Source: Bacteroidia bacterium
Lineage (GTDB): Bacteria > Bacteroidota > Bacteroidia > Bacteroidales > VadinHA17
Reading direction: 5' to 3'
NCBI GenBank assembly: GCA_026391215.1
Contig: JAPLDX010000047.1
Span: forward strand, 1-51,211
Length of the DNA: 51,211 nucleotides
Positions within the stretch are counted from its first letter, which is position 1. Each line of letters starts with the position of its first letter. Below, piece after piece: positions 31,475 through 48,475 of the stretch. A program made the position numbers and the translations under genes. The notes under the pieces are model-generated. The model searched no databases. It was not told where the DNA came from and saw nothing but the letters and a program-made list of their open reading frames with translations.

Positions 31475-31594
31475 TTACAATAAATGAATATGGAAAATTT
31501 TTTCAAGGAGTTTTGCCAGAAGATAACCTGCATAGAGAAAACCTGCTATTGAAATGAGGAATAAAATGACAATCAGAACAATTCTCCAGTTCAT
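31475..31594 (-). CDS. 39-aa single-TM microprotein in the kdpF position (divergent KdpF-like); not in the ORF track
   Basis: Hand translation MNWRIVLIVILFLISIAGFLYAGYLLAKLLEKIFHIHLL; stop is 3 nt before the kdpA ATG; ATG is 20 nt after promoter module A. Confidence 0.7.
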   Translation of the reverse strand: MNWRIVLIVILFLISIAGFLYAGYLLAKLLEKIFHIHLL

Positions 31595-31614
31595 TTTAAA
31601 ATTTTTTGGCATAA

Positions 31615-31681
31615 CAAAAATATACCGGAAGATATAAAGCCTTTATAAAGAATTGACTTACAGGTATAAAGAAATAATAAA
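31615..31681 (-). promoter_or_regulatory. Four-box KdpE-type promoter module A (kdpFABC)
   Basis: Minus strand TTTATT-atttc-TTTATA-N15-TTTATA-aaggc-TTTATA-N10-TATTTTTG. Confidence 0.8.
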
Positions 31682-31724
31682 TTTCAGGAGTTATATATTG
31701 CCGGCTGAAATACAATCTGAAATC

Positions 31725-31791
31725 TTTATAAAATCTTTATGCATTCCCGGGTCTTCTTTCTAACTTCTTAATAAGACTATATCTACTATGA
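31725..31791 (+). promoter_or_regulatory. Four-box KdpE-type promoter module B (degenerate -7 box), upstream of KimA-like remnant 1
   Basis: TTTATA-aaatc-TTTATG-N15-TTTCTA-acttc-TTAATA-N10-TACTATGA; 56/68 nt identical without gaps to the kup promoter (hand count). Confidence 0.7.
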
Positions 31792-31870
31792 CGGATTTAC
31801 TATATGGGAAGATTTGATTTAACAAACCTCAGTTGAGTCACCAGGTTTTACAACAATAAAGGGGAAAGGA

Positions 31871-32046
31871 ATAAATAGTACAGGTACAAGTTATTCGTTT
31901 GCCAGCAGACTGAAAGATAATTTTATAGGGAAAGCCAGAGCTATTCAGGACAAAAGGATATTTCACAAATTAACTCTGGTAGCATTTTTTACCTGGGTAG
32001 GTCTTGGGGCGATGGAATTTCATCTTCGTGCTGTGGGACTGAGGAG
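31871..32046 (+). pseudogene. 5' remnant of a KimA-like (APC-fold) K+ transporter gene
   Basis: INSTGTSYSFASRLKDNFIGKARAIQDKRIFHKLTLVAFFTWVGLGA, then a 1-nt frameshift near 32010 to DGISSSCCGTEE; ATA in place of a start codon; truncated after EE. Confidence 0.7.
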
Positions 32047-32121
32047 TTAGAGAATCTGGAACATTTTATTTTTCAAAGTTGTTGCATAACCACACTATCT
32101 TTTCTATTCAGAAGAGATTCT

Positions 32122-35100
32122 TTAAATTTCTTTCTTAACTTCTACAAGTTGTTTCCTGTCTTCATGTTTATAGATCAGGTGCAATATTGTTGGGAAAATT
32201 ATCAGAAGAAGAGGCAGGGCAACAACAAAACCACCAATAACGGAAATTGCAAGAGGCCGGTGCATCTGTGCTCCGGTTCCAATTCCTATTGCAAGAGGCA
32301 GCAACGCAATAATAGCTCCAAGCGCTGTCATTAATTTTGGCCGTAATCTTGTAGAAATAGCAAATACAACAGATTCATCAACAGATCCCTTTTGGCGGTT
32401 TGTCATGAATTGCTGAAATGTGAAGATCGCATTTTCACCAATTATACCCACAATCATAATCAAGCCGGTGTAGCTCCCGACATTTAATGGTGTATTGGTG
32501 ATAAACAGGGCGATCAGACTGCCGGAAAGGCCAAGGACGGCAATGAAAAGTATCGCACATGCAGCTCTGAAATCCCTGAAAAGGAATAACATAAGAGCAA
32601 ATACAAGGAGACTGGATAATATGAGTATCAGGAGGAGTTCATTAAATGATTTCTGCTGATCTGCATATTCCCCTCCATACTCAATATGGTATCCCTGGGG
32701 AAGGTATACATTCTTTTCTATCATCTTCTGAATATCCTTCATTGCACTTCCCAGGTCCCTGTTATTCAACCTTGCTGTAACAATTGTTACTGATTTCAGA
32801 TTTTCCCTTGTTATCTCTGCAACACCTTCCTGTACTTTAATATCAGCGAATGAAGAGAGAGGTCTTAATTTACCGTCAGGCATGAAAATATTTTGATTTT
32901 TAACCCGCACAAGAGCATTTTCTGTACTGCCGGGGTAGATCATTCTGATATCGGTCATCTGTTCCTTTTCCAGGATATTTCCAACAATATTCCCTTCCAT
33001 CATAGTCTGAACCTGATATTGAAAGGATTCCGGAGAAACATTAAAACGGGATAATTCCTGATGATCAGGAATAAATTCGATTGAAGGTCCTGCAATAACT
33101 ATCCCATCAAACACATCTTCTATTCCATTAATCTTTTCGATTTCACCGGCAACCTGTTGGCCCAGTTCATTCAGTTTAGCCTGTTCAGTGCCAAATATTT
33201 TGATCTCTATGGGCTGAACAGATGCCATCAGGTCCCCTAACATATCACCGATTATCTGTCCGAAATCCACGAGCAACGCCGGCTGTGTTGCTTCAATCCG
33301 TTGCCGTATATCATCTATTACCTCTTCTGTAGACCGGCCTCTGTTGTTCCTCAGCTGAATAAGATAATCACCGGTATTGGGTTCAGTGACAAAGAATCCC
33401 ATTTCTGTGCCGATCCGGCGTGAGTATGTCTCGACTTCGGGAATATCAACGATTATTCTTTCAACTTCTATAAGGATTCTTTCAGTCTCTTCAAGTGATG
33501 TTCCTGGCGGTGACCAATAATCAAGGATGATTGATCCTTCATCCATCTCTGGTAAAAAACCTGTCTCTATTTTTGGGATGATATAAATGATGGATCCAAT
33601 GAGACATAAAATAAAAAGGATGCTAATTACCGGTTTTTTTATAAAGAAGCTTACCCAGTTTCTTGTTTTGGTAAGTTTGACTGTATTTGTATTTCTTGCC
33701 GGGAATAATGGTCTTAACTGAGAGAACCACAGATAGATTACCGGAAGTCCGATCCACGTTACAAGGAAGGAGCAAATAAGGGTAATTACCATTGTATTGG
33801 TTAGCACATTAAAGTACGCACCTGCCACTCCTCCGAGAAGCATAAATGGAATAAAAATGACAATCGTGCTTATAGATGATCCGATCATGGAAGGCATAAG
33901 GTATTTTATTGCCTGATGAACGAGTTGATTGGATGGCCTGTCAGGAAACTCTTCATGGGTCCTGTGGATCTGTTCAACAACGACCACCGCATCATCAATT
34001 ATCAATCCTATGGCAGCAGCTATTGCACCAAATGTCATTACATTAAGTGTATAGCCGATGCTATAAAGAACAATAATTGTCAGGAAGATTGTTACCGGAA
34101 TTGTAACCATTATTGTCGCGCTGGCCCTGAAGGATCTGAGGAACAGAATAGCTACCAGGATGGCCAGAATGAGCCCTATCCACAAGCTGTCGCTCACACC
34201 TTTTATAGACCGGTTTACAAAATCTGCCTGATCATAATACAGTGATAAATGTACGTCAGCAGGAAGTATCTTTTCAAGCTCTTTCTTTTTTGATGCAAGG
34301 TTCTTTGAAAGATTCACAAGGTTTGCATTAGGCTGCTTCAGGATTGCTATCAGTAAACCCTGACGGCCATTTGCATTTATCCTGGTGTATTCTGTTTTTT
34401 CCCTTACATTGACACTTGCAATATCCTGTACTTTAATTATCCTTTTCCCGTCATTCCTTATAACAACATTTTGAATGTCATTAAGATTGTAAAGGCCGGC
34501 ATCAGTAATAGTCAGATATAATCTCTTGTAATCCGAAAGAAATCCGTTTGAGCTGATAAAATAATTTCTGTTAAGAACATCACCGATCATTTCCGGGGTG
34601 ATGGAAAAAGAACTCATTTTATGCTGGTCAAGCTCAATCCAGAATTCTTTTGTCTTTCCGCCAATTATGCCAATCTGAGATACTCCCTCAACCTGGGAAA
34701 GGAAAGGTTTAACAGTATAAGTTGCTAAAAGGTTTAGTTCAATCGGAGTTCTTTTATCACTTTCAATTGTATAGCCAATCACAGGCAAAATTGACGGATT
34801 CATTTTCTCAATCTGAATCTGAACATCAGGAGGGAGCTCGTTTTTTATCTGTGCTATCCGGGATTCCAGCATTTGCTGATTAATATTGATATCTGCATCC
34901 CAGTTCAGGAAGGCGGATATCTCACATGAACCGCGGCTGGTCATGCTTCGAAGCGTTTTCAGGTCAGGAATCTGTTTTATAGCATCCTCAAGAGGACGGG
35001 TAACAGTTACCATCATTTTATCGACGGGTTGTTCCCCGTTATCAGCAATTATTTTGAGTTTCGGAAAAGTTATTTCAGGAAAGAGAGATACCTGTATCTG

Positions 35101-35196
35101 GCTGTAAAGGAATAACCCACCTGCAATTATTGCTGCCAGAATTAATGAAACCGGACTTTTATATGAAAAGAAGAAATTCTTCATTACAATAATCAC
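32122..35196 (-). CDS. RND efflux permease, CusA/CzcA (heavy-metal efflux)-like
   Basis: LFPEITFP, GLIIDDAVVVVE, FLPEMDEGS and RLRPKLMT motifs; GTG start overlaps the adaptor stop (alternative ATG 35184). Confidence 0.9.
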   Translation of the reverse strand: MIIVMKNFFFSYKSPVSLILAAIIAGGLFLYSQIQVSLFPEITFPKLKIIADNGEQPVDKMMVTVTRPLEDAIKQIPDLKTLRSMTSRGSCEISAFLNWDADININQQMLESRIAQIKNELPPDVQIQIEKMNPSILPVIGYTIESDKRTPIELNLLATYTVKPFLSQVEGVSQIGIIGGKTKEFWIELDQHKMSSFSITPEMIGDVLNRNYFISSNGFLSDYKRLYLTITDAGLYNLNDIQNVVIRNDGKRIIKVQDIASVNVREKTEYTRINANGRQGLLIAILKQPNANLVNLSKNLASKKKELEKILPADVHLSLYYDQADFVNRSIKGVSDSLWIGLILAILVAILFLRSFRASATIMVTIPVTIFLTIIVLYSIGYTLNVMTFGAIAAAIGLIIDDAVVVVEQIHRTHEEFPDRPSNQLVHQAIKYLMPSMIGSSISTIVIFIPFMLLGGVAGAYFNVLTNTMVITLICSFLVTWIGLPVIYLWFSQLRPLFPARNTNTVKLTKTRNWVSFFIKKPVISILFILCLIGSIIYIIPKIETGFLPEMDEGSIILDYWSPPGTSLEETERILIEVERIIVDIPEVETYSRRIGTEMGFFVTEPNTGDYLIQLRNNRGRSTEEVIDDIRQRIEATQPALLVDFGQIIGDMLGDLMASVQPIEIKIFGTEQAKLNELGQQVAGEIEKINGIEDVFDGIVIAGPSIEFIPDHQELSRFNVSPESFQYQVQTMMEGNIVGNILEKEQMTDIRMIYPGSTENALVRVKNQNIFMPDGKLRPLSSFADIKVQEGVAEITRENLKSVTIVTARLNNRDLGSAMKDIQKMIEKNVYLPQGYHIEYGGEYADQQKSFNELLLILILSSLLVFALMLFLFRDFRAACAILFIAVLGLSGSLIALFITNTPLNVGSYTGLIMIVGIIGENAIFTFQQFMTNRQKGSVDESVVFAISTRLRPKLMTALGAIIALLPLAIGIGTGAQMHRPLAISVIGGFVVALPLLLIIFPTILHLIYKHEDRKQLVEVKKEI

Positions 35197-36119
35197 TTAA
35201 CTATAACTCTTGCAGTATCCGGAAGTCCATAGCTGCCTGTGAGAATAATTCTGTCGGTCTGAATAAATTCAGGATCTGTTATTTCAACCTCCTCATTATT
35301 TTCGTATCCTTTCTTAACAGGAATTTTTATAGCTATGGAGTCGTTTATCAGCTTCATCACCCAGAATTCAGTCTGGGTTTCATTGCTTAGGACAGCAGAT
35401 TTAGGCAGGACGAAAGCTTTGTCTTTGCTGCTTTTAACTATTCTGACAAGGGCATTCAAATTTGCAGGAAGACGTCCGGCAAAAACCGGTTTGATAACAT
35501 ACCTTACTGTCTGTGCCTGGGAATCCATTTCCGGAAGATTTCCGGTTATATTACCATTGATAATCTGATCACCCGGCAGTTGAATTTTGCAGTTCCTGTT
35601 TTTTTCGACATATTTTGCAAATTCAAACGGAGTGTCAAGAATAAAAACGAGACTGTTCTGATCCGAGATAACAGCAATTTCATCACCCTCCTGAACGAAG
35701 TCGCCATTCTGATGTGAAATAGAATTTATCACACCAGATGTTGGTGAAATGATGTCTATTCTGCCTTTAAAAGTAAATGTGCTGTCATCTATTAAGGAAT
35801 TATTCATTGCTGATGCCTCGCGGGTCCTGATTGTACAAAGAACCTGGCCTTTCTTAACATACTCTCCCGGAACTATGGAAATATTTTCGACAGTACCGGA
35901 AGTTGCAGACCGGACAATGCTTTTATTAAGAAAAGCAGATACTGCAGGAAGCTCTATGGTCTCTGTAACTGGTTTATTTATCACTTCTGCAATAGTTACC
36001 GGAGTAATAACAGATGCATCTGTTTCAGAAACTGTCTTATTCCGCCTGCATGCAGTTGTAAATAAAATCAGCAACAACAACAAACTGTAGAAGGGAGCGG
36101 TTATTTTTATTGACATCAT
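35193..36119 (-). CDS. RND periplasmic adaptor (membrane fusion protein), lipoprotein
   Basis: Lipobox-like TTAC; lipoyl half-motifs GEYVKKGQVL and SPTSGVI...GDFVQEGD. Confidence 0.88.
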   Translation of the reverse strand: MMSIKITAPFYSLLLLLILFTTACRRNKTVSETDASVITPVTIAEVINKPVTETIELPAVSAFLNKSIVRSATSGTVENISIVPGEYVKKGQVLCTIRTREASAMNNSLIDDSTFTFKGRIDIISPTSGVINSISHQNGDFVQEGDEIAVISDQNSLVFILDTPFEFAKYVEKNRNCKIQLPGDQIINGNITGNLPEMDSQAQTVRYVIKPVFAGRLPANLNALVRIVKSSKDKAFVLPKSAVLSNETQTEFWVMKLINDSIAIKIPVKKGYENNEEVEITDPEFIQTDRIILTGSYGLPDTARVIVK

Positions 36120-36132
36120 AGGGATTTTATGA

Positions 36133-37374
36133 TTATTGGGTGAGAAGAAAGTTTATTTCATTTATTACCTGTAAAATCCGTATCCGGTTATCGCTAAGAG
36201 TTTTAGTAACAGAACGATAGTTTTTCACCGCATTAATATATTCTGTCATCTGGATCACCCCCGATTCAAGCTGTTGCCTTAAAGCATTAACCAGTTGCTC
36301 AGAGGTCGCCAGCTGGTTCTGGAGCTGAACTTCAAGGTTTTTAAATGATTTTAATTCAGAATTAAGCTGCTGTATCTGCTGGTAATATCGCGTCGTAAAG
36401 TTATCGAGATATGAACTTCTTGTATTTTCAGCCAGTTTGAGCTTCTGTTTTTCCTTCTCTTTCTGATTACCATCATAGACAGGTATGCTGAGGTTTATCC
36501 CGGCACTGAAGCCGAAATGCCTGTAAAAATTAAATGGAGTGGCTGTAAGAAATCCGGCATCAGCAAACCAGTTCATTTTTGGCAGGTATCTCATATCAAT
36601 GCCAGCTATATCATTCACAATACGCAGACTGTCAATCTTATACTGCATAAAAAGAGGTGATTTACTGATCTCTGCCATGCCTGTTATTTCAAGAGCAGGT
36701 AAATTCAGATCATAAAATCCTGTATCATTCAGGCCGCATAACTGGTTAAGCAGCCTCATGTCAGTTTCATATTGATTTTTAAGCTGGTTTACGAGAATTT
36801 CCAGGGATTGTGTTTCAACTTGCAATGAAAGATAATCTGTCTGCTTGCAAAGACCATTTAAGACAAATTGATATGTAATCTTATTCTCTTTGTAATAAAG
36901 CTCAAGGAAAGATTTATTAAAGGAAAGGTCATTGTAATCGGCACAGGATATTAAATACTGTTCGGTAATGATCTTCTTTATTTCAGCAACAGATAGCTTT
37001 GTGGAATTATAAGCACCTTGTTTTTGTATATCAATTGCCTGAAACTTGTTTGAGATTTCTCTTTTATTAAGAATATTCTGCGATACGCTTACAACTGCCT
37101 GATAATTACCTCCATCTGTTACGACTTCATCGTACCCGAAATTTGTAAAAACAGGAGAATAAAGCAACTGGGATTTTGCTTCAACCTGTGGCATTTTTGA
37201 AGATCGGATGAGCAGACTATCTAACAGAGCTGAACTGACTTGATTATAATAATCCTTCAGAAGCGGACTGTTCTTTATTCCTTCCTGCAGGTAATAATCG
37301 AGTGTCCTTGACTGGCTCAGTGAGAGCACAGAAAAACAAAAGAATAACAGAACAACAATCGATCTCCTTTTCAT
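36133..37374 (-). CDS. TolC family outer-membrane efflux protein
   Basis: Signal peptide, KNSPLLK, GINLSIPVYDG and coiled-coil segments; in operon with the adaptor and RND genes. Confidence 0.85.
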   Translation of the reverse strand: MKRRSIVVLLFFCFSVLSLSQSRTLDYYLQEGIKNSPLLKDYYNQVSSALLDSLLIRSSKMPQVEAKSQLLYSPVFTNFGYDEVVTDGGNYQAVVSVSQNILNKREISNKFQAIDIQKQGAYNSTKLSVAEIKKIITEQYLISCADYNDLSFNKSFLELYYKENKITYQFVLNGLCKQTDYLSLQVETQSLEILVNQLKNQYETDMRLLNQLCGLNDTGFYDLNLPALEITGMAEISKSPLFMQYKIDSLRIVNDIAGIDMRYLPKMNWFADAGFLTATPFNFYRHFGFSAGINLSIPVYDGNQKEKEKQKLKLAENTRSSYLDNFTTRYYQQIQQLNSELKSFKNLEVQLQNQLATSEQLVNALRQQLESGVIQMTEYINAVKNYRSVTKTLSDNRIRILQVINEINFLLTQ

Positions 37375-37423
37375 ATAAAAGGACTTTCAATATTTTCAAT
37401 GCAAGGTAAGTAAAATCATTATA

Positions 37424-38461
37424 CTACTTTACAGGGGCCACATCCAGCACCATGAAAGTACCAGGCTTGACCGCAGGCCGGCGATTTGTATTTTCTGCAG
37501 ATGGATCCGGAGCTTCATATTCTGCAGTCGACATGAATATATGATGTGTCTTCCTGTCAACAGTTATTGTTCTTGCACCGTGAAGTGTCGGAACATTTTC
37601 AAGAACTGTGAACTTATCAGGACCGATTTCCTGAACCACCGTCATTGTACCCTCTCCATTTGAACTATAGACGCGTTTCAATTCAGGATCAAATGCAGCG
37701 CCGTCGCATCCATCGCCAATTGGAAGGGTTGTTATAATTTTCCCTGATAATGCATCCAGGACAACCATAAGCTTGTTGCTGCAGACTGTGAACAGACGGT
37801 GATTTTCATTATCAAGAGCCATGCCTCTGGCTTCTTCACCGGGTGCAATACTCCATGTTTGTTCGACTTTATCTGTTGTTGAATTAATAACAGAAATCAC
37901 GCTTTTATCTTCAATATTCACATATACTTTGCCCTTACCGTCTGTGACAGAGTTCTCAGGCTTACCATCAAGTTTAATTGTTGAAACAACTTTATTTGTT
38001 GTTCCATCTATCACTGTCGCATTTGCAGTTCTGCCATTATATACAAATACCTTATGGCTGAAGGGATCATATAAAATTGCATCAGGATTCTGGCCGGTTA
38101 CAGGCACTTTAGTTATAAATGCCAGGGATTTAAGATCAATAATAGTCACAGAGGAGTCTCTGCCGTTGCTTATAAATGCTTTATTCAGATCAGCTGCAAT
38201 GGCAATGCCATGAACTCCTTTTGTGTCAGGTATAGTTCCCAGCAGCGTCCCGTCTTTCTCATCAATGACCTGAACGACACTACTGTGCGAAATGAATATC
38301 CTGCCAGTAGATTCATCAACATTCAGATAATCCCAACCACCGTCTCCTTCAAGGTGGAACTTGTTTACTAATTTATATCCTGATGACTCTGTCTGAGCCT
38401 TCAGCAAGTTGCTGCTGCATATAAGAATGAAATAGCTGACAAAAAGAAAGTACTTCTTCAT
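37424..38461 (-). CDS. YncE-family (YVTN repeat) periplasmic beta-propeller
   Basis: GDGGWDYL, GVHGIA, GQNPDAILYDP and GARTITVD motifs; signal peptide begins at MKKYFLF (38461), although the track extends the ORF to 38560. Confidence 0.85.
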   Translation of the reverse strand: MKKYFLFVSYFILICSSNLLKAQTESSGYKLVNKFHLEGDGGWDYLNVDESTGRIFISHSSVVQVIDEKDGTLLGTIPDTKGVHGIAIAADLNKAFISNGRDSSVTIIDLKSLAFITKVPVTGQNPDAILYDPFSHKVFVYNGRTANATVIDGTTNKVVSTIKLDGKPENSVTDGKGKVYVNIEDKSVISVINSTTDKVEQTWSIAPGEEARGMALDNENHRLFTVCSNKLMVVLDALSGKIITTLPIGDGCDGAAFDPELKRVYSSNGEGTMTVVQEIGPDKFTVLENVPTLHGARTITVDRKTHHIFMSTAEYEAPDPSAENTNRRPAVKPGTFMVLDVAPVK

Positions 38462-38556
38462 CTTAATATATTTATTAATATTTAACATAAAAATAATCTT
38501 TTTAAATGAGGCTGATACAATGTATTTTATTGATTCAGCTAATAGCCATTTTATTC

Positions 38557-39360
38557 TCATCCGATTATTACGGATGTCATTGTCAATGAACCTGCTACAG
38601 CCTTATCATTAAATATATGTGCAATTTCATTTTCTTCCTTTAAGGCCAGGCAATAAAGCAATGGAAGAAAATGGTCAGGAGTGGGAACCGCCAGGTTAAA
38701 TGCCTTGCCCTGAGATTTGTAATCAATCAGCTTTTTGTGATCATTTGAAAGGATACAATTTTTAATTTTTTCGTTCGCCTCAATTGCCCAGTCATATCCA
38801 AATCCCGGATTGCCGATATTTTCCCAGCTGGCCATTCCAAGGTTGTGAACCATATTTCCGCTACCGACTATCAAAATACCCTTTTTACGTAGAGGCGAAA
38901 GTTCTTTTGCTAAATCATAGTGATATTGCGGATCTTTATAATAATCCATACTTAATTGAATGACAGGAACATTCGCTTCAGGGTAAAGATGCTTTATCAC
39001 AGACCATGTACCATGGTCAAGCCCCCATTTCTCATCCAGCCCGACTTCGGCCTTTATTATAATGCGTTTTATTTCCCTGGCTAACTCAGGGCTTCCGGGT
39101 GCAGGATAATGAACATTATACAGCTCCTCCGGGAATCCTCTAAAGTCATGGATTGTCTTCGGATTTTTCATTGCGGTTACGTAAGTCCCAGTTGTCTCCC
39201 AATGCGCTGATATACATAAAATAGCAATTGGTTTTGGTATGGTTTTCCCTATGTTCCGCCATCCGGTTACGAATTCATTTTCTTCAATTGCATTCATAGG
39301 GCTGCCATGTCCCAGAAACAGGACAGGCATTTTATCCGTGATAATATTTATTCCAGTCAT
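38557..39360 (-). CDS. ygiD: 4,5-DOPA extradiol dioxygenase (YgiD/LigB family)
   Basis: MPVLFLGHGSPMNA, ISAHW, TIHDF, GLDHGTW, GSGNMVHNL and PTPDHFLPL motifs. Confidence 0.92.
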   Translation of the reverse strand: MTGINIITDKMPVLFLGHGSPMNAIEENEFVTGWRNIGKTIPKPIAILCISAHWETTGTYVTAMKNPKTIHDFRGFPEELYNVHYPAPGSPELAREIKRIIIKAEVGLDEKWGLDHGTWSVIKHLYPEANVPVIQLSMDYYKDPQYHYDLAKELSPLRKKGILIVGSGNMVHNLGMASWENIGNPGFGYDWAIEANEKIKNCILSNDHKKLIDYKSQGKAFNLAVPTPDHFLPLLYCLALKEENEIAHIFNDKAVAGSLTMTSVIIG

Positions 39361-39672
39361 AGCAATTCTTTGCCTTATTTCATTGGAATTTCAATCAACT
39401 AAAGTTCAGGATCGGTAAATTCATAAACAGATAAGTGATTGAGGTTGTTCATACGGGACAAAACTAGTCAAATCTGTTTAATACCATGAATCAAGTTTAT
39501 GGAACTGCTTGTGCATTGATATCCTGATAAAATGTTAAATAATGCTAATTTTAGCAGTTTCAGGATGGTCAGGGAAAGATTTGCAAAATTAAAATTAAAT
39601 CTTTGATCGTTTGAAAAGATCCATATATTTTAACAGGATAAGGTTGACTCTACAAATTGAAATTTTCTGACC

Positions 39673-40965
39673 ATGAATAACCGAATAGTTTTACTCCGGA
39701 CATTTTTATTGTTACTGATTATTTTGCCAGAATCTGGCTTTAGCCAGGGAAATAAAATTATCACCGATACGCTGAGGCAGGGTGCTGTAAAGATCTTTTT
39801 GGATTGTAACGAATGCGATATGAACTATATACGGCAGGAGATACCTTATATTAATTATGTTCGGGATGTCCGTGAAGCACAGGTTTATATACTTGAAACA
39901 ACCCAGAATGCCGGAAGCGGTGGTGATCAATATACTTTTACTTTTCAGGGACAAAGAGAATTTAAGGGGATGAATGATACTCTTGCATTTACCAGCAGCC
40001 CCGACCAGACAAATACCATTATAAGGGAAAAAAGAACCAAGATTCTTAAGATGGGGCTAATGAGGTATGTTGCCAGAACTCCGCTGATAGATGAGATTGA
40101 GATAAACCACAATACTGAGCTTGAACAGGAAGAAGTGGTCGATAGATGGAATAACTGGGTATTTGAATTATCTACAGAACCTCAATATCAATCTGAAGAG
40201 GCAAATAAACGATTGGAGTTGAGAAATTCGATCAATATATCAAAGGTCACACCTGAAATAAAACTTGAAGTCGAAATGGACCAGTTTTATAACAGGGAGA
40301 GGTTCATTGAAAATGTTAATACTGATTCAGCCAGCTCAAATACCTACATAACAAATGAGAAATTCATGAATATGCTTTTTGTGAAAAGCCTTGGGGAACA
40401 CTGGTCTGCAGGAGTTAAATCAAATCTTGGATCCTCGACCCGTGAAAACTATGGCTTCAAAACCGGTTTTCTGCCATCAGTTGAATATGATATTTTCCCT
40501 TATTCGGAATCGACTCACAGACAATTACGAATTTTGTATAGTATTGGTTTTCAGTATAATAAATATATTGACACAACTATCTATAATAAAGTAAATGAAA
40601 GTTTATATTTACAAATGTTAAACATTGCATTCCAGGTGCAGAAGAAATGGGGATCGGTTAATCTGGCTTTGGTAGGTTCAAATTATTTCCATGATTTTTC
40701 GAAGAACAGAATTGAACTTCTCTCCTCAATAAATATAAGAGTTTTTAAAGGATTATCTTTCCAGATCGAAGGTGGAGTAGCTCACTTAAGCGATCAGCTG
40801 AATCTAAAAAAGGGAGGCATTTCCGAGGCTGAAAGATTGTTGCAGTTGAGAGAGCTGGCAACAAAATATCGTATACAAGGAGGTATTGAGATAACTTATA
40901 CTTTCGGATCAATCTATAATAATATTGTTAATCCAAGATTTAGTTCCAGCGACTTTCATTATTGA
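39673..40965 (+). CDS. Hypothetical outer-membrane protein (N-terminal CxxC domain plus probable beta-barrel)
   Basis: Signal peptide; FLDCNECD; beta-strand-rich C-terminus ending YTFGSIYNNIVNPRF. Confidence 0.65.
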   Translation: MNNRIVLLRTFLLLLIILPESGFSQGNKIITDTLRQGAVKIFLDCNECDMNYIRQEIPYINYVRDVREAQVYILETTQNAGSGGDQYTFTFQGQREFKGMNDTLAFTSSPDQTNTIIREKRTKILKMGLMRYVARTPLIDEIEINHNTELEQEEVVDRWNNWVFELSTEPQYQSEEANKRLELRNSINISKVTPEIKLEVEMDQFYNRERFIENVNTDSASSNTYITNEKFMNMLFVKSLGEHWSAGVKSNLGSSTRENYGFKTGFLPSVEYDIFPYSESTHRQLRILYSIGFQYNKYIDTTIYNKVNESLYLQMLNIAFQVQKKWGSVNLALVGSNYFHDFSKNRIELLSSINIRVFKGLSFQIEGGVAHLSDQLNLKKGGISEAERLLQLRELATKYRIQGGIEITYTFGSIYNNIVNPRFSSSDFHY

Positions 40966-41047
40966 GGCTTTTAATCCTGCCTGCAGTAAAAAATCGCTTC
41001 CCACCCTAAAATATTTTTATTATATAAATATGCGTTTATATAAACAT

Positions 41048-42436
41048 TCATTTATATGAATGATCTGAAAAAACTTCATTAGAGGAGTACTTTTGTATTT
41101 TTATTATTGCAGTTACTATATCTTCCATGTCTCTCATTGTACCCAGGAAAACTTTTTGTCCCAATGATAATCCTGTCTCCTTATCGATTCTTTCGTTGAC
41201 CGGGCACAAATTTTCTCTTCTGTATTTATCAAGTCGCTCTTTGGAAAAAACCTTCTGAAATCCCCGTAAGTTTAAGTAAGTTTCAATAAAGGGATCCAGA
41301 TGAAGTGAAGAATCGATCCCGCGTCCAAATGGGATTCCTTCAGCGCGCATAGCTTCCACGAACTTTGTTTTGGGCAAATCATTAAAATACTCCTTTTCAT
41401 ATATCAGTTGATATTCGTAGAAGGATCGCCTGGTTTGGCCAGAATATTTTTTAGTCGGACGGACGCCTTTAATTTCAGACAATAATTTTTCCAGGTAAAG
41501 GGAATTCTCATCACGTTGAGCGCTTTGTACCTCCAGACGACGTATTTGTCCCAGTAAAGTGGCTGCAACAAATGGTGTTATCCGAAAATTAGATCCGGGG
41601 AAGGATCTTCTCTGACCTCTGGGATCTCTTCCATTATTAGTGTACGCATCGACTTTAGCCATAATATTATCGTCATTCCCTATAACGGCACCGCCTTCAC
41701 CTCCGCAGAGACTCTTTCCTTCCTGGAAACTAAAACAACCCAGATCACCAATAGCCCCCAGTTTCTTATTCCTCCATTCGCCCATATGTGCCTGACAGGC
41801 ATCTTCAATGACCACCAGGTTATGCTTTTTTGCAATTGCCAGTATCTTATCCATATCTGCTGCAGCTCCTCCGATGTGTACAGGAAGAATAGCCCTGGTA
41901 TTTGGTGTTATTCGTTCTTCTATCAAATCGGCATTTATCATAAATGTTTCAGGATCTGAATCAACAAACACAGGTAATGCAAATAAATTGAATGTAGTCT
42001 GCGCAGTGGCAATAAATGTGTTTGTTTGTGTAATGACTTCATCACCAGGACCAATATCGAAGGCACGCTGCGCTGCATCCAGTGCATCGGTTCCGGAGTT
42101 GGTAGTGGCACAATAACTAACTCCCATAAGTTCTGCAAACTCCTTTTCAAACCTGACTGAAAGTTCTTTATCAGAATTACTGTATTCTGACCATTTCTTG
42201 CTTTTATAAGCATCCAGATACATTTGTACATCCGAATCTTCATATACAGGCCACGATCCTCCGAGAGCAGAACCTTTTTGGCGAACAGGAGAACCACCAA
42301 GTATTGCAGGTTTTTCAACATCCTGAATTATGTCAAGATAAACAGATGCCAATCCGGTTGAGGCAAGGGTAACTCCTGCTGCACCTATCGACGTCTTTTT
42401 AACAAACGTTCTGCGTGTTAATGGTTTATTTTTCAT
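41048..42436 (-). CDS. DegT/DnrJ/EryC1/StrS PLP aminotransferase with a twin-arginine (Tat) leader
   Basis: LTRRTFVKK leader; NSGTDAL, PVHIGG, IEDACQAH and FSFQEGKSL (PLP Lys) motifs; ATG 42436 chosen. Confidence 0.88.
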   Translation of the reverse strand: MKNKPLTRRTFVKKTSIGAAGVTLASTGLASVYLDIIQDVEKPAILGGSPVRQKGSALGGSWPVYEDSDVQMYLDAYKSKKWSEYSNSDKELSVRFEKEFAELMGVSYCATTNSGTDALDAAQRAFDIGPGDEVITQTNTFIATAQTTFNLFALPVFVDSDPETFMINADLIEERITPNTRAILPVHIGGAAADMDKILAIAKKHNLVVIEDACQAHMGEWRNKKLGAIGDLGCFSFQEGKSLCGGEGGAVIGNDDNIMAKVDAYTNNGRDPRGQRRSFPGSNFRITPFVAATLLGQIRRLEVQSAQRDENSLYLEKLLSEIKGVRPTKKYSGQTRRSFYEYQLIYEKEYFNDLPKTKFVEAMRAEGIPFGRGIDSSLHLDPFIETYLNLRGFQKVFSKERLDKYRRENLCPVNERIDKETGLSLGQKVFLGTMRDMEDIVTAIIKIQKYSSNEVFSDHSYK

Positions 42437-42468
42437 ATTTTTCACAGAGCTTGCTTTAGCTGATAATA

Positions 42469-43190
42469 TCATTCTTTTTTCTTTCTTTCCAATGGAATTA
42501 TTCCGGCCATCTCTCCAATGATATTTACCAATTCAGTTCCTGCCGGAACAACAATTTTAGCATTATTTCCAAGTGATGCTTCAAGAGCCTCTAACTTTCG
42601 CAATAACTGTGCACAGCTGTAGCAGAATCTATAGCCGCTATTTTTTCATTTTCAGCTTTTACCACTTTGTTCATGGTATCCTGTACATCACTTGGAGGGT
42701 CAATTTCTTTCAACTCTGTCCGGACAATTTCAATACCCCAGGTCTGGGTTTCATTATGGAGTGTCCTATATAGTTCAGAATTAATTTTTCCTCTTTCGCT
42801 GTTGGCCGATTTAAGCGTGAGTGTACCTATAATATTACGCAGAGTGGTGCGTGCCAGATTAACGATCTGCAATCTGTAATTATTAACATTGTATATTGAT
42901 CCCTTAACACTTTCTTCTTCAGATTTCACCCTGAAATAAACCTGTGCATCAACGCTTGCATTCAGATTATCGTTTGTGATTATTTCCTGTGGCTGGGCAT
43001 CTACCATCTGTTCGGTCACATTAACCAGGTATAGTTTGTCAATAATCGGTATAATCCAGTGAAATCCCGGATTTGCAAAATTATGGTATTTCCCAAGCCT
43101 CTCAATTAAAGCTCGTTGTGTTGGTCGTACAATTCTGATTCCGGCAAGAAATACCAGTACAATTGGAGTTATTACATACAAATAGTTCAT
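42469..43190 (-). pseudogene. SPFH/band 7 (QmcA-like) gene with an internal deletion and frameshift
   Basis: SPFH domain (IERLGKY...VDAQVYF...ARTTLRNIIG) is intact to AAIDSATA; a family-like C-terminus AQLLRKLEALEASLGNNAKIVVPAG...KKKE* follows in another frame at 42612-42469. Confidence 0.78.
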
Positions 43191-43469
43191 TTTAATTTCC
43201 TTTCTTTTAATAAATGATTATGTTTCAAAATGGGATTAACGAGCTCGCAAGCTCTATTGTATTTAGAATGAAATGATGTAACTCCTTAAATAATCCTTGA
43301 CAGCATTATAGAAAAGATAATAATCTATATGCCTTATTTTCTATAAAGATAACAATAAATATCTGAAAATCAATATGTATTGATTGTGACATAGCCAGAG
43401 TAACATTCTATATTAATCAGGATTAGCTCTATTTTGGCCATAACCGGCTGTGCGGGCCGGCAGGCAGGT

Positions 43470-43607
43470 TCATGTCGAATTTATCTCATGGGTAGTTTTG
43501 AAATAACCCTTTATCGTAATTTTCCTTGCCCTGCCAATAATAGCATTTTTCAATCGTTCTTTGAAGGAATAACTTTCATATAAACTCCCTATCTCTTTCC
43601 CATCCAT
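43470..43607 (-). pseudogene. Second 5' remnant of a KimA-like transporter (45-codon ORF, frameshifted)
   Basis: MDGKEIGSLYESYSFKERLKNAIIGRARKI then, in a shifted frame, DKGLFQ; aligns with remnant 1 (SYSFASRLKDNFIGKARAIQDKRIFH). Confidence 0.6.
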
Positions 43608-43673
43608 TATCTTGTTATTTAGATATACAATTTAAATCAGTTGCTCACCCTGTTTATTTATTCATAAACCGCG

Positions 43674-43740
43674 CAAAAGTATACAGCAGGAAATAAAGAC
43701 GTTATAAAGATTTGTCGGGGAGATATAATTATTTTACAAA
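43674..43740 (-). promoter_or_regulatory. Four-box KdpE-type promoter module C
   Basis: Minus strand TTTGTA-aaata-ATTATA-N15-TTTATA-acgtc-TTTATT-N10-TACTTTTG. Confidence 0.7.
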
Positions 43741-43788
43741 GGCACTGTGAATATTGTATGTGTCCCTGCTTCGGTTTGTAAAGTCATA

Positions 43789-43929
43789 TTAAATATGCTT
43801 CTTAGAATGGCTCTCCGGATCAAACTTCAGATATTCGTCTAATTTGAAAATATGCCCAATCAATTCCCCAATTGCAAAGATTAGGAACAAGCCACCGAAT
43901 AATTCAATTATTAATATCAGGCAGTCCAT
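43789..43929 (-). CDS. Unannotated 46-aa single-TM microprotein
   Basis: Hand translation MDCLILIIELFGGLFLIFAIGELIGHIFKLDEYLKFDPESHSKKHI; ATG is 26 nt after promoter module D, with an AT-rich leader. Confidence 0.6.
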   Translation of the reverse strand: MDCLILIIELFGGLFLIFAIGELIGHIFKLDEYLKFDPESHSKKHI

Positions 43930-43955
43930 AGTAATTTTGAAATTTATTGACGAAT

Positions 43956-44021
43956 CAAAATTACCAGGCAGTAAATAAAGGTTATATAAAGATTAACAGC
44001 AGGTTATAAATTTTTTATAAA
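43956..44021 (-). promoter_or_regulatory. Four-box KdpE-type promoter module D
   Basis: Minus strand TTTATA-aaaaa-TTTATA-N14-TTTATA-taacc-TTTATT-N10-TAATTTTG. Confidence 0.75.
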
Positions 44022-44041
44022 TAATTATCTTTTTAAATAAT

Positions 44042-44725
44042 TTAATTTCCAAATCTATATCCAATACCAGATTCTGTGATTAACAACTCAGGTTTTGAGG
44101 GATTTTCTTCTATCTTTTTCCTTAGTTGAGCTATAAAAACTCTGAGATATTGTGTTTGCTCATAATAACTATATCCCCATATCTCTCTTAATAAAAACTG
44201 ATGAGTCAAAACACGTCCTTGATTTTTAGCAAGAAGTGATAATAAGGAGAACTCTGTTGCAGTAAGTTTGACTATTTCGTTGTTTTTTCTCACTACATGG
44301 TTTATTAAGTCTATGCTCAGTGATCCAAACTCTAATATCGGGCTGTCAATCTTTTCTGTATTTAATCTTATTGCCGTACGAACTCTTGCAAGCAACTCTC
44401 CGCTCCTGAATGGTTTTGTTAAATAATCATTTGCCCCTTTATCTAATGCATAAATAATATCATCTTCAGAGTTTCTGACAGTTAATACAATTATTGGCTT
44501 ATTAAACCATTCCCTTAGTTTTACTAACAGTTCCAGCCCGTCAATATCAGGTAATCCAAGATCAAGGATTATTGCAGAGGGATTATGTGTTGCAGCAGAA
44601 GTAAGGCCCTCTTTACCGTCAGAAGCAAAGATGGTCTTGTATCCATTTGATGTAAGTGAGATTTCAAGGAGACGACGGATTTGTATCTCATCGTCAATTA
44701 TTAAGATGGTGTCGTTTTCATTCAT
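44042..44725 (-). CDS. kdpE: KdpE response regulator, copy 2
   Basis: About 80% identical to copy 1 by hand alignment, same length, last 39 aa identical. Confidence 0.9.
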   Translation of the reverse strand: MNENDTILIIDDEIQIRRLLEISLTSNGYKTIFASDGKEGLTSAATHNPSAIILDLGLPDIDGLELLVKLREWFNKPIIVLTVRNSEDDIIYALDKGANDYLTKPFRSGELLARVRTAIRLNTEKIDSPILEFGSLSIDLINHVVRKNNEIVKLTATEFSLLSLLAKNQGRVLTHQFLLREIWGYSYYEQTQYLRVFIAQLRKKIEENPSKPELLITESGIGYRFGN

Positions 44726-46251
44726 TCTTCGAGTTCTAAATTCTTTATATCAGGAATTTCAGTAGGTATTGTAATCGTAAATTTTGCCCCTTTTGTCTCC
44801 AGGTTCTCAACTTTAACAGTTCCTTTATGGGCTTCTACCAACCCTTTTACAATTGACAATCCTAAGCCCAGACCACCAGCTTTTAAACTATCAACCCTGA
44901 AAAATTTATTGAATATTTTGTCTAACGATTCTTGTGGGAATCCAGGACCATTGTCTTCAACAAGAATAATTAGATTACTTCCTCTATAATTGGCATTGAA
45001 TCTTATAATTGATCCAGCAGGGGTATATTGACAAGAGTTCAGAACCAGGTTATAAATAACTTGTTCCATCAAACCAAAATCCAGTCTTACTAATGGCATA
45101 TCAGTTGGGATTGAACTTAAAAGATGAAATTGTTCTAACTCCTGCTTAAGGATCTTAGTTACATTGTTCAAAAGATCATTAATATCACACCAATCTAACC
45201 GTGCAGATATTTTTCCACTTTCAAGACGTGACATATTTAAGAGATTCTCTACAAGGTGATTTAATCTTGCCGAGGCCTTGAATATTTCTTCAAAAAGTTG
45301 TGTTCTGTCTTTATCTGTAGTCTGTGGCATTAATAGGGTATCCGAAGCACCCATTATTGTAGCTATCGGTATTCTGAATTCATGGGAGATAAGTGTAAAA
45401 AGTGTTTTGTACAATTTATCCGATTCATCAAGTACCCGTGCTTTAAGCGCTAACTCACTCAGAAGTTCACGTTCAAGGGCATTTGATATCTGAGTAAAAT
45501 AACCAATCCAGAATATCTCTTTCTCACTTGAAAGTGATTTTTCGAATCCAATTGCGATTACTCCGGGACTAAGCTGCTTTCCAGTTAATGGGTAATATGT
45601 CAGGCTTGTCTCATTATAGAAATCCGTGAATCTCCCTGCTTTCATCGAATTTTTAAAGACCCATTCTGCTATTTTATAATCCACTCGAAAATGATCCTTT
45701 TCATTTCCTCGCTTGACCAATATTTCAATTTTGCTTTTCTTTTCCTGTAAGAAAAATATGGCGGAAGCATTGAAGTATTTCTTAACATCTAAAAATGCTA
45801 CATCTAATATTTCATTTACACCACTTGTATTTGACAGTTCTCTTGTTAATTTGAAAATTGCATTAGTCCGTTCTTCTCTTTCCAGAGCCAGCTTTTCCTG
45901 CCTGCGTATTCGATATGTCAAAATGCCATTAATCAGGGCAATAAAAAAGAAAGAGCCAAACATCAGCTTATCCTCTGTCTTTTCAATATGAAAAGCAAAG
46001 TGAGGAGGAATAAAAAAATAATTCCAAACAAGAGAGCTGATTGTTGAAGCAAGCAAAATAGGGCCTATACTCAAAAAAGCCGCCATTATCGAAACTACAA
46101 AAAGCAGAATGAATGAAACTATATAATATCCCTGCTGATTTGAAAGAGGCCTGCATAGTAATGCAGTTAATGCAATAATAAAAATTACAATTAAATACTG
46201 ATTGATCTTAGAGGTAAGTATTGAATATGATATTTTTTTAATCTCCTGCAT
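44722..46251 (-). CDS. Short KdpD-like sensor kinase (TM, GAF, HisKA, HATPase; lacks the N-terminal KdpD and Usp domains)
   Basis: WNYFFIPP TM motif, ISHEFRIPIATIMGASDTLL and GLGLGLSI; collinear with the C-terminal part of 24426-27104; own TAATTTTG -7 box at 46278-46285 (minus). Confidence 0.88.
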   Translation of the reverse strand: MQEIKKISYSILTSKINQYLIVIFIIALTALLCRPLSNQQGYYIVSFILLFVVSIMAAFLSIGPILLASTISSLVWNYFFIPPHFAFHIEKTEDKLMFGSFFFIALINGILTYRIRRQEKLALEREERTNAIFKLTRELSNTSGVNEILDVAFLDVKKYFNASAIFFLQEKKSKIEILVKRGNEKDHFRVDYKIAEWVFKNSMKAGRFTDFYNETSLTYYPLTGKQLSPGVIAIGFEKSLSSEKEIFWIGYFTQISNALERELLSELALKARVLDESDKLYKTLFTLISHEFRIPIATIMGASDTLLMPQTTDKDRTQLFEEIFKASARLNHLVENLLNMSRLESGKISARLDWCDINDLLNNVTKILKQELEQFHLLSSIPTDMPLVRLDFGLMEQVIYNLVLNSCQYTPAGSIIRFNANYRGSNLIILVEDNGPGFPQESLDKIFNKFFRVDSLKAGGLGLGLSIVKGLVEAHKGTVKVENLETKGAKFTITIPTEIPDIKNLELEE

Positions 46252-46372
46252 TTAAATCATTTAATCTCAGGTATATACAAAATTAGCTTATTAGTATCTA
46301 AGTTACTCATTATAACAAATGAAATAAAAAATATGTATTAATTATTATCTGAAGAAGACGTGATTTAAAATC

Positions 46373-46439
46373 TTTATAAAATCTTTATACATTCTATTGT
46401 CTTATTTTCAACTTCTTTATAATACTCCATCTACTTTTG
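46373..46439 (+). promoter_or_regulatory. Four-box KdpE-type promoter module E (kup)
   Basis: TTTATA-aaatc-TTTATA-N15-TTTTCA-acttc-TTTATA-N10-TACTTTTG. Confidence 0.8.
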
Positions 46440-46519: not shown

Positions 46520-48475
46520 GTGGATTTTGGAGGGAGGCATTTGGATATTAAGAAACTCTCATTAGCGGGAGTTGTTGTTGCATTGGGTATTGTTTTCGGA
46601 GATCTCGGAACAAGCCCTCTTTATGTAATGAAGGCAATAGTAGCTGGAGGAGGTGAATTCAATGAACTTCTAATTTATGGTTCTATGTCCTGTATATTTT
46701 GGACATTGACTCTCCAAACTACAATAAAATATGTACTTATAACCATGAGGGCAGACAATAAGGGAGAAGGTGGAATTTATGCCCTTTTTGCCCTTTTAAA
46801 AAGGAAACCTTCATGGGCTGCGATATTAACAATGATTGGCGCAAGTGCATTATTAGCTGATGGAGTAATAACTCCGGCAATTACTGTTACATCGTCAATC
46901 GAAGGGTTACAGCTGTACAATCCCGAAATACCTGTAATCGCCATAGTTCTATTAATATTTGCTGGTCTTTTCTTTATGCAGCAATATGGAACAAACATCG
47001 TTGGAACTTCATTTGGGCCTATTATGGTCATTTGGTTTTTAATGCTTTCATTTTTAGGTTTAAGTCAACTTATCAATCACCCTGAAGTACTAAAAGCATT
47101 AAATCCTTATTATACTATACTCTTCCTGACAAAATATCCCGGAGGATTTATATTACTGGGAGCTGTTTTTCTTGCCACTACCGGAGCAGAAGCCTTATAT
47201 TCTGACCTTGGGCATTGTGGAATAAAAAACATAAGGATATCATGGATATTTGTAAAAACTGCTCTTGTCCTTAACTATCTTGGTCAGTGTGCATGGTTAA
47301 TAACTAAAGAGGGTCTTCAAGCTGATGTAAATCCATTTTACGGGATAATGCCAGGATGGTTTTTAGTCCCGGGAATTTTTATTGCTACAGCAGCAGCTAT
47401 TATAGCCAGTCAGGCTCTTATAACCGGATCATTCACACTTATAAGTGAAGCAATATCCCTGAATTTCTGGCCAAAACTCAGAATCTTAAATCCCACTTTT
47501 TTAAAAGGACAGGTTTATGTACCGTATGTAAACTGGTTTTTATGGATTGCCTGCAGTTTCGTGGTTGTTTTCTTCAAAAAATCCTCTAATATGGAAGCTG
47601 CGTATGGCCTCTCTATAACTTTGACGATGATAATGACCACTCTGTTATTATCGTTCCATTTATATCAAAAAGGAATAAAACATAGATTTATACTTTTGCT
47701 TTTGCTTGTCTACCTGACCATAGAAGGTAGTTTCCTTATTGCCAATCTCCATAAATTCAGCAATGGAGGATGGTTTACATTACTTTTAGCTTCTCTGTTT
47801 TCTTTGATTATGTATGGTTGGTATTTTGGGAGAAAACTAAAGAACAGATATGTAACATTCGTCAGGCTGGATAAATACATTGAATTATTTAAGACGCTGG
47901 CAAAGGATAATTCAGTGCCAAAGATGGCAACCAACCTTGTTTATATCATTAAAGCAAACATACCTGATCAGGTTGAATCAAAAGTAATTCATTCAATATT
48001 CCACAAACAGCCTAAACGGGCAAATATATACTGGTTTATTCATGTTGATAGAACTGATGAACCAGATACTTTTAATTATAGGGTAACACATATCATCCCG
48101 GAAGTGTTGATCAGGATAGATTTTTACATAGGTTTTAGAGTCGTACCCAAAATTAATCTCTATTTCAAAGAGGTTCTGGAAGACCTGACTGAGTCAGGTG
48201 AGATTAAACTTGAAAGTAGCTTTGATTCTCTCAGGAAGCGGTCTTTCCCTTCAGATTTCATTTATATTCTTATTGACAGAGTCATGACTAAGGACTATCA
48301 ACTTTCATCTCTTGAAAACGTTACTCTTTTCCTTCATAATATTTCAAGATTAATATGTATTTCCGACGTAAATGCATTAAACCTTGATTCAACTAATACT
48401 ATTGAGGAGAAAGTCCCTATCACTATTAGCCAACCTCTAAATGGAAGAATTAGCAGGTCAGTGAAAACAGAATAG
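46520..48475 (+). CDS. kup: KUP/HAK/KT family K+ transporter (GTG start)
   Basis: GIVFGDLGTSPLY, ADNKGEGG, DGVITPAI, TGAEALYSDLGH and AAYG motifs. Confidence 0.96.
   Translation: MDFGGRHLDIKKLSLAGVVVALGIVFGDLGTSPLYVMKAIVAGGGEFNELLIYGSMSCIFWTLTLQTTIKYVLITMRADNKGEGGIYALFALLKRKPSWAAILTMIGASALLADGVITPAITVTSSIEGLQLYNPEIPVIAIVLLIFAGLFFMQQYGTNIVGTSFGPIMVIWFLMLSFLGLSQLINHPEVLKALNPYYTILFLTKYPGGFILLGAVFLATTGAEALYSDLGHCGIKNIRISWIFVKTALVLNYLGQCAWLITKEGLQADVNPFYGIMPGWFLVPGIFIATAAAIIASQALITGSFTLISEAISLNFWPKLRILNPTFLKGQVYVPYVNWFLWIACSFVVVFFKKSSNMEAAYGLSITLTMIMTTLLLSFHLYQKGIKHRFILLLLLVYLTIEGSFLIANLHKFSNGGWFTLLLASLFSLIMYGWYFGRKLKNRYVTFVRLDKYIELFKTLAKDNSVPKMATNLVYIIKANIPDQVESKVIHSIFHKQPKRANIYWFIHVDRTDEPDTFNYRVTHIIPEVLIRIDFYIGFRVVPKINLYFKEVLEDLTESGEIKLESSFDSLRKRSFPSDFIYILIDRVMTKDYQLSSLENVTLFLHNISRLICISDVNALNLDSTNTIEEKVPITISQPLNGRISRSVKTE

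Follow-up and report, generated by a model that had tools for sequence, protein, structure and literature searches.

The 51,211-nucleotide (nt) contig JAPLDX010000047.1 of a Bacteroidia bacterium (assembly GCA_026391215.1), which is analysed here at its full length and is called the window, carries five copies of a composite promoter in which four TTTATA-like boxes, arranged as two tandem pairs, precede the -7 box of Bacteroidota at fixed distances. Judged from sequence, these five sites very probably (roughly 0.85 in our estimate) represent a KdpE-dependent K+-uptake regulon with a double-dimer promoter. We infer KdpE binding, activation and a K+ signal from the pattern, its uniqueness in the genome, its conservation and its gene associations. 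The regulator and its half-site are known; the double-dimer promoter, and a regulon of several transporters kept across the phylum, would be new. The window is the whole of contig C135 in a draft genome of 3,388,213 bases (3.39 Mb) and 135 contigs.

Five sites with one geometry

An earlier note, made from the letters of the window alone, had described five sites with a common four-box geometry. All five read as claimed, and the composite spans 67 bp. They are listed below with their sequences on the promoter strand, mismatches to the search pattern TTTATA-N5-TTTATA-N15-TTTATA-N5-TTTATA-N10-TANNTTTG (scored over its 30 specified positions) and scores with a position weight matrix (PWM).

31615..31681, minus strand: four-box promoter of the kdp operon, TTTATT-ATTTC-TTTATA-N15-TTTATA-AAGGC-TTTATA-N10-TATTTTTG; 1 mismatch, 53.8 bits
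31725..31791, plus strand: four-box promoter, divergent from the kdp promoter, -7 box decayed, TTTATA-AAATC-TTTATG-N15-TTTCTA-ACTTC-TTAATA-N10-TACTATGA; 6 mismatches, 34.7 bits
43674..43740, minus strand: four-box promoter, -7 box intact, TTTGTA-AAATA-ATTATA-N15-TTTATA-ACGTC-TTTATT-N10-TACTTTTG; 3 mismatches, 43.2 bits
43956..44021, minus strand: four-box promoter with an N14 spacer, before a microprotein gene, TTTATA-AAAAA-TTTATA-N14-TTTATA-TAACC-TTTATT-N10-TAATTTTG; 1 mismatch, about 51 bits with an N14 matrix
46373..46439, plus strand: four-box promoter of kup, TTTATA-AAATC-TTTATA-N15-TTTTCA-ACTTC-TTTATA-N10-TACTTTTG; 2 mismatches, 51.1 bits

As the note had it, the spacing is identical except for one nucleotide (N15 in four sites, N14 in 43956-44021), and every box deviates from TTTATA by at most two bases. 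The half-sites, (TC)TTTATA, stand at offsets 0, 11, 32 and 43; they form two tandem pairs and share a single helical face. Two direct-repeat pairs of the TTTA(T/C)A type with 5-bp spacing are present in every site. TAnnTTTG comes exactly 10 nt after the last half-site and is exact in four of the five sites; in the exception, 31725-31791, it reads TACTATGA, with three mismatches there and three more in the boxes. That TAnnTTTG is the -7 box of Bacteroidota, as the note stated, agrees with the sigma-ABfr consensus quoted in PMC7366714, which combines it with TTTG near -33. In the region that starts some 17-25 nt upstream of the -7 box, counted from its TA, and comprises boxes 3 and 4 with the spacer that joins them, direct reading found no -33 TTTG in any of the five sites; the proximal TTTATA pair takes up this region in all of them, where the note had placed it. 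The sites 31725-31791 and 46373-46439 also have spacer sequence in common.

At 31615-31791, two four-box promoters stand back to back with 43 nt between them, one directed toward kdp and the other toward a transporter gene. This divergent pairing is also seen in four further genomes (G038, G043, G044, G096) and in other families (G255, G370).

Uniqueness in the genome

When all 135 contigs were scanned on both strands with spacers of 13-16 nt, the five sites proved to be the five best matches genome-wide, the next best having 7 mismatches. In the N15 frame, three real sites are found at up to 3 mismatches. The reversed N15 pattern has no match in the whole genome at up to 7 mismatches, and ten local 70-nt block shuffles gave a mean of 0 matches at up to 4 mismatches and 0.5 at up to 6. 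On mismatch count alone, therefore, the site 31725-31791 is borderline (6 mismatches against 0.5 shuffle matches per genome). A PWM was built from 52 sites of relatives, excluding this genome, and applied to 6,758,066 positions; beyond the four N15 sites, the best position reached 12.7 bits. Because 31725-31791 scores 34.7 bits against 12.7 for the best non-site, it was accepted. Removing one spacer column from this matrix gave the N14 version, with which 43956-44021 stands out in the same way (best position beyond the five sites, 15.9 bits). Scanned with matrices from other genomes, this genome yields the five sites only.

A minus-strand candidate at 46314-46380, which would have served the operon of a short kinase and kdpE2, was rejected at 8 mismatches. 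On contig C35 of the same genome (G000), positions 16723-16757 of the plus strand hold a lone TTTATA-N5-ATTATA pair, N10 from TACTTTTG, with 1 mismatch; it precedes a gene for a putative lipoprotein of 178 amino acids, and shuffles yield 0.1 such matches per genome. It is a possible sixth, one-dimer target and is not counted among the sites. No Rfam family reached its gathering score when the window was scanned, and the long leaders are thus not explained by a riboswitch or leader of that kind.

Conservation across Bacteroidota

In a survey of 101 genomes of the genus with the full pattern at up to 3 mismatches, the frame occurs in 29 genomes (43 matches); across the order it occurs in 39 of 301 genomes, or 35 of 208 genera (50 matches). 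The reversed pattern, used as a control, gave no match in either set. A search of public genome contigs with a stricter, exact pattern matched at least 120 loci, nearly all labelled Bacteroidota. The labels among the matches listed include Flavobacterium, Chitinophagaceae, Cytophagaceae, Sphingobacteriaceae, Prolixibacteraceae, Rikenellaceae, Paludibacter and others, with one Ignavibacteriaceae and one Chloroflexota label besides. In Flavobacterium isolates such as F. cucumis DSM 18830 and F. ponti, the site precedes the operon of the short kinase and kdpE.

In a sample chosen independently of the motif, for which the 5 kb before kdpA were taken from each of 40 genus genomes, 35 loci contain a site at up to 6 mismatches, and 26 of the 40 have it on the kdpA strand, no more than 600 nt from the gene. 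The spacer in these sites is N15 in 53 of 56 and N14 in the other three. Two of the five kdpA upstream regions in which no site was found (L051, L065) are cut by contig ends. Positions that the pattern leaves unspecified are also conserved: T and C stand immediately 5' of each box, and boxes 1 and 3 are followed by AAA. The sequence of the N15 spacer is not conserved. Upstream of kup orthologues from 19 relatives a site was found only once (L008), so the motif marks one kup lineage rather than kup in general.

Genes behind the promoter

The first downstream gene was recorded for 122 sites in 120 of the at least 120 public loci; this table, and every count out of 122 below, refers to the matches listed.

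Short KdpD-like kinase, usually followed by kdpE: 43 of 122 sites
kdpA: 24 of 122
kup: 18 of 122
trkH-like: 14 of 122
KimA-like: 6 of 122
BBP2/OmpL-type porin: 6 of 122
kdpB: 1 of 122
Unnamed family of 273 amino acids: 1 of 122
Nothing recognised: 9 of 122, several lying a few hundred bases or less from where the stretch ends

Directly behind 113 of the 122 sites stand K+ genes. Autoregulation is usual for two-component systems, and the module often precedes the kinase/kdpE operon itself. Within the genus, further targets are KimA-like (9 sites), Kup (2), TrkH-like (1) and BBP2 porin (4) genes. The proposal that the regulon is wider than kdpFABC is supported across the phylum by the same frame before kup, KimA-like, trkH-like, porin and kdpD-like/kdpE genes.

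Two families of 254-273 amino acids without a Pfam match stand behind seven four-box sites in the genus, and members occur upstream of kdp operons (L057, L059, L067, L078; L066, L071, L072). Most of the sequences read begin like a signal peptide, and F is the last residue of every one, so that they are probably small outer-membrane barrels; BBP2/OmpL-type porins occupy this position as well.

The genes at the two promoter clusters of the window are as follows.

31475..31612, minus strand: small hydrophobic open reading frame (ORF) in the position of kdpF, 45 amino acids as listed, C-terminus ...EKIFHIHLL
29795-31471, minus strand: kdpA
27684-29780, minus strand: kdpB
27101-27676, minus strand: kdpC
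24426-27104, minus strand: kdpD, full-length, 892 amino acids
23735-24418, minus strand: kdpE1
44722-46251, minus strand: short KdpD-like histidine kinase, 509 amino acids (DUF4118, weak GAF, HisKA, HATPase)
44042-44725, minus strand: kdpE2, directly after the short kinase
46520..48475, plus strand: kup (K+ uptake permease)

The site 31615-31681 lies upstream of the small ORF and kdpA, and the order behind it is small ORF, kdpA, kdpB, kdpC, full-length kdpD, kdpE1. In the second cluster, 43956-44021 begins 21 nt past the end of kdpE2. The short kinase aligns only to KdpD residues 398-891 and is without the N-terminal sensor part of KdpD. About 12 kb of unrelated genes, among them an RND efflux system, a LigB-type enzyme and an aminotransferase, separate the clusters. 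Of the three kup paralogues in the genome, only that at 46520-48475 has the motif. As far as sequence can tell, the working regulon here would comprise the kdp operon, the microprotein gene and this kup; the two other sites front gene remnants.

KdpE as the candidate regulator

In Escherichia coli, KdpE recognizes the half-sites TTTATA and TTTACA, with a 5-bp spacer between them, within a footprint from -72 to -50, and requires R193, R200 and T215, of which R193 is specific to KdpE (as given in PMC3264566). The binding sequence TTTATA-N5-TTTACA given in the earlier note agrees with this account and with the E. coli sequence read directly.

Two KdpE proteins are encoded in the window. KdpE1 and KdpE2 are paralogues with 181 of 227 residues identical (80%), and their DNA-binding halves are nearly identical. 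The best solved relative of KdpE2 is E. coli KdpE (4KNY, E 4e-60), with YLR...LR...IT kept, and the residues aligned to R193, R200 and T215 are kept in both paralogues.

With E 1e-70 or better as the threshold, a KdpE orthologue is present in 59 of the 101 genus genomes. The strict motif is found in 27 of these 59 as against 2 of the 42 without KdpE, among genomes that are related and not independent. Five genomes have the motif and no kdpA; four of them have a KdpE orthologue (one with stop codons), in three cases on the same contig as the site. No kdpA was detected in 19 of the 59 genus genomes with KdpE, including G011, G013, G015, G031, G039, G049, G051, G052, G081 and G103 (loci L221-L234).

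The 17-mer TTTATAAAATCTTTATA at 1 mismatch was tried as a more sensitive marker and rejected as noisy, its control matching about half as often in a rough tally. Only those of its matches that adjoin kdpE were used, to choose 14 loci around kdpE. In this sample, which is biased since the loci were chosen for a nearby distal element, four-box sites adjoin kdpE in all 14 loci, and 13 have the order kdpE, four-box site, trkH-like gene. A short KdpD-like kinase precedes kdpE where the upstream stretch is present (L232-L234). The occurrence of kdpE and the short kinase without kdpA implies that the 'Kdp' two-component system exists without the Kdp pump.

Proposed mechanism

Each site would be a complete activator-dependent promoter for the primary sigma factor of Bacteroidota. 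When K+ is scarce, the full-length KdpD, the short KdpD-like kinase, or both, would phosphorylate KdpE1 and KdpE2, and one KdpE dimer would bind head-to-tail on each pair. If transcription is assumed to start about 7 nt past the -7 box, the distal pair would lie at about -71 to -55 and the proximal pair at about -39 to -23. The proximal dimer would thus replace the -33 element and bring in RNA polymerase, in the way of PhoB at pho boxes. The predicted targets in this genome are the kdp operon (small ORF, kdpABC, kdpD and kdpE1), the stand-alone small membrane protein and one kup.

Because the same module stands before kdp, kup, kimA-like, trkH-like, porin and short-kinase/kdpE genes, KdpE appears to govern inducible K+ uptake overall. 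A wider form of this proposal makes the KdpE of Bacteroidota the master switch of all inducible K+ acquisition (Kdp pump, Kup, KimA-like and TrkH-like carriers, outer-membrane porins, small membrane peptides), acting through an obligate two-dimer promoter and uncoupled from the Kdp pump, in a frame that is possibly ancient; we hold this version tentatively, with slightly less than even confidence.

Evidence against and alternatives

Several observations limit or weigh against a KdpE regulon of this kind. Two of the five sites front KimA-like remnants, and one of these has a decayed -7 box. In this genome the motif is absent from the other two kup paralogues and from both trkH-like genes, and no site was found for the short kinase/kdpE2 operon, a class that accounts for 43 of the 122 phylum sites. 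Three kdpA loci of the genus sample (L061, L085, L089) have enough upstream sequence and no site at up to 6 mismatches. Sites at up to 3 mismatches are absent from 32 of the 59 KdpE-bearing genus genomes, many of which have weaker sites, and two motif genomes, G044 (84% complete) and G067 (97% complete), lack a KdpE orthologue at E 1e-70. The equivalog cut-offs of NCBIfam are missed by KdpE2 (232.7 against 325) and by KdpD (677.3 against 1123), and KdpE1 is likewise below the one for KdpE. Finally, repression is also conceivable from a proximal site that covers the core promoter.

The last point is taken up in one alternative: KdpE binds, but the proximal pair represses, so that only the distal pair activates, or that kup-type targets are shut off. 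The geometry of the site, in which the proximal pair overlaps the region contacted by RNA polymerase, allows this, and for Caulobacter crescentus a preprint (10.1101/2023.07.05.547876) mentions a potential down-regulation of kup when K+ is limiting, by a mechanism that it does not identify. However, the same proximal pair stands before kdpA in 26 of 40 relatives, where the kdp operon must be induced; lack of a -33 TTTG, as in all five sites, is typical of activator-dependent promoters; and the architecture is identical for all target classes. We regard repression through the proximal pair as improbable.

It is highly improbable that the boxes are bound by some other factor, such as another response regulator of the OmpR/PhoB family. 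An 11-bp direct-repeat layout is common to that whole family, and the subthreshold score of KdpE2 and the two motif genomes without a detected KdpE orthologue would fit such a factor. Yet the half-site is that of E. coli KdpE and unlike the PhoB half-site TGTCA(T/C) quoted in PMC3264566, the motif co-occurs with KdpE orthologues in the genus, and the largest class of phylum targets is the kdpD-like/kdpE operon itself, the remaining targets all being K+ transport genes. The adjacency of sites to kdpE in the 14 chosen loci points the same way, within the bias of that sample.

Chance in AT-rich DNA, or recent promoter duplication without a common regulator, can be practically discounted: the spacer sequence common to 31725-31791 and 46373-46439 does show a common origin, and 31725-31791 taken alone is within reach of the shuffles, but the reversed pattern is absent from all 101 and all 301 genomes, boxes and TC flanks are conserved while spacers are free, the PWM from other genomes recovers only these sites, and the frame is kept across Bacteroidota families and classes.

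Small membrane proteins

The genes that the earlier note had placed downstream of the sites were recovered for kup, a 46-residue microprotein, two KimA-like remnants and kdpA, kdpB and kdpC; its KdpF was not, the small ORF before kdpA matching no KdpF model. In the KdpF test, neither this ORF nor the microprotein matched NCBIfam or Pfam. Canonical KdpF peptides (...YL.Y.L.PEKF) are present in some relatives and not in this genome. Members of the family of the small ORF (31475-31612) also precede kdpA in L051-L054 and L075. Translation of the small ORF probably begins at its second Met (31594), for a product of 39 amino acids, as the position of the -7 box suggests.

The microprotein gene is the target of the N14 site.

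43789..43929, minus strand: single-helix microprotein of 46 amino acids, member of a conserved family

The consensus of this family is M....LILxLFGGLILxFGxGxLIGHxFKLDK. Relatives, among them L212, L215 and L198, occur in 13 of the 101 genus genomes and in other Bacteroidota; in the ESM Atlas the microprotein meets only unnamed clusters below 0.9. A relative stands directly before kdpA in five genomes (G059, G071, G110, G012, G073), with a canonical ...PEKF KdpF upstream of it in at least G059 and G012, and alone behind a four-box site in four (G007, G032, G045, G110). The small ORF and the microprotein appear to belong to related families, and one sequence (L141) merges features of both. From its gene position, the microprotein family may be a Kdp accessory or an undescribed Kdp-associated peptide.

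One contig labelled Chloroflexota (L150) carries the motif before kup together with a member of the microprotein family. For a promoter of the Bacteroidota type, this label looks doubtful.

KimA-like remnants

Searches with tblastn, using nine intact relatives as queries, found two remnants of KimA-like genes behind four-box sites and no intact KimA-like gene in this genome.

31859..32129, plus strand: KimA-like remnant
43497..43607, minus strand: second KimA-like remnant, residues about 3-38 only (tblastn E 3e-4; ORF 43470-43607)

In the first remnant, 31859-32046 corresponds to residues of about 3-59 with a frameshift near 32008-32011; residues 632-656 follow at 32055-32129, joined to this piece with a loss of roughly 570 codons. 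The intact proteins of relatives (647-682 amino acids), which sit behind the same promoter, match AA_permease_2. One of these, of 668 amino acids, has Bacillus subtilis KimA (6S3K, E 3.9e-61) as its sole PDB match, and the window pieces are fragments that match its N- and C-terminus. Because the KimA-like genes behind them have been deleted to remnants, two of the five promoters are relics.

Past the second remnant, the next intact minus-strand gene is a 199-residue SPFH/Band_7 gene (42591-43190). The relic promoter 43674-43740, whose -7 box is intact, lies about 480 nt upstream of this gene and might now drive it by transcription that runs through the KimA remnant.

Novelty and significance

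No publication on a KdpE box or KdpE regulon in Bacteroidota was found in a search that covered literature listings and passages of main texts, not supplements or RegPrecise. Fig. S3 of PMC3264566, as described there, aligns the kdp upstream regions of various bacteria, which could include Bacteroidota.

KdpE is the textbook case of a regulator with one target. Here its half-site is set in a fixed 67-bp composite promoter, which would unite several unrelated systems for K+ uptake with porins and small peptides in a single regulon throughout a phylum that includes major gut and environmental bacteria. The promoter logic of Bacteroidota is unlike that of E. coli, and this would be among the few activator-dependent architectures in the phylum that can be read from sequence. 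The module could serve as a ready predictor of K+-responsive genes in uncultured genomes and as a compact candidate K+-responsive promoter part, and it points to an unstudied family of small proteins tied to Kdp.

Comparison with known systems

PhoB offers a parallel in manner of working. Pho boxes are tandem 11-bp direct repeats in helical phase that replace the upstream promoter element and are bound by PhoB, a winged-helix response regulator. PhoB works with sigma-70 and alone drives many operons for nutrient uptake, those of its own two-component system among them. The four-box module would resemble the pho box by analogy of function only, not by membership, as the regulator, the half-site and the sigma factor differ.

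The sigma-ABfr promoter shares its -7 box with four of the five sites, and the -33 TTTG of its consensus is missing in all five.

E. coli KdpE is described as a single-target regulator on the basis of genomic SELEX in PMC5934670. The KdpE box of E. coli kdpFABC is the same TTTATA/TTTACA direct repeat with a 5-bp spacer, and the K-12 promoter PkdpF (NC_000913.3, L235) can be read in the same frame as TTTATA-CTTTT-TTTACA-N15-TTTGCG-AAATC-TTTGCA-N10-TACCCT, so that its pair corresponds in position to the distal pair of the module relative to the core promoter; this reading agrees with the footprint given in PMC3264566. In contrast to the module, PkdpF has only one consensus pair, and the proximal positions are held by TTTGCG and TTTGCA, outside the footprint and in the -35 region. 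These proximal TTT hexamers with their AAATC spacer may be left over from an architecture common to both, or may be there by coincidence. The Bacteroidota module differs in having two consensus pairs, a sigma-ABfr -7 box instead of -10 and -35 elements, and several operons per genome.

In C. crescentus, KdpE has been studied genome-wide and a wider K+ regulon has been considered (preprint 10.1101/2023.07.05.547876). Pkdp is the main target there, the proposed motif (TCGAMRACGCSMKC) is unrelated, and activation of kup by KdpE is not reported. With the four-box module, unlike in Caulobacter, the site that precedes kdp also stands before kup, kimA-like and trkH-like genes.

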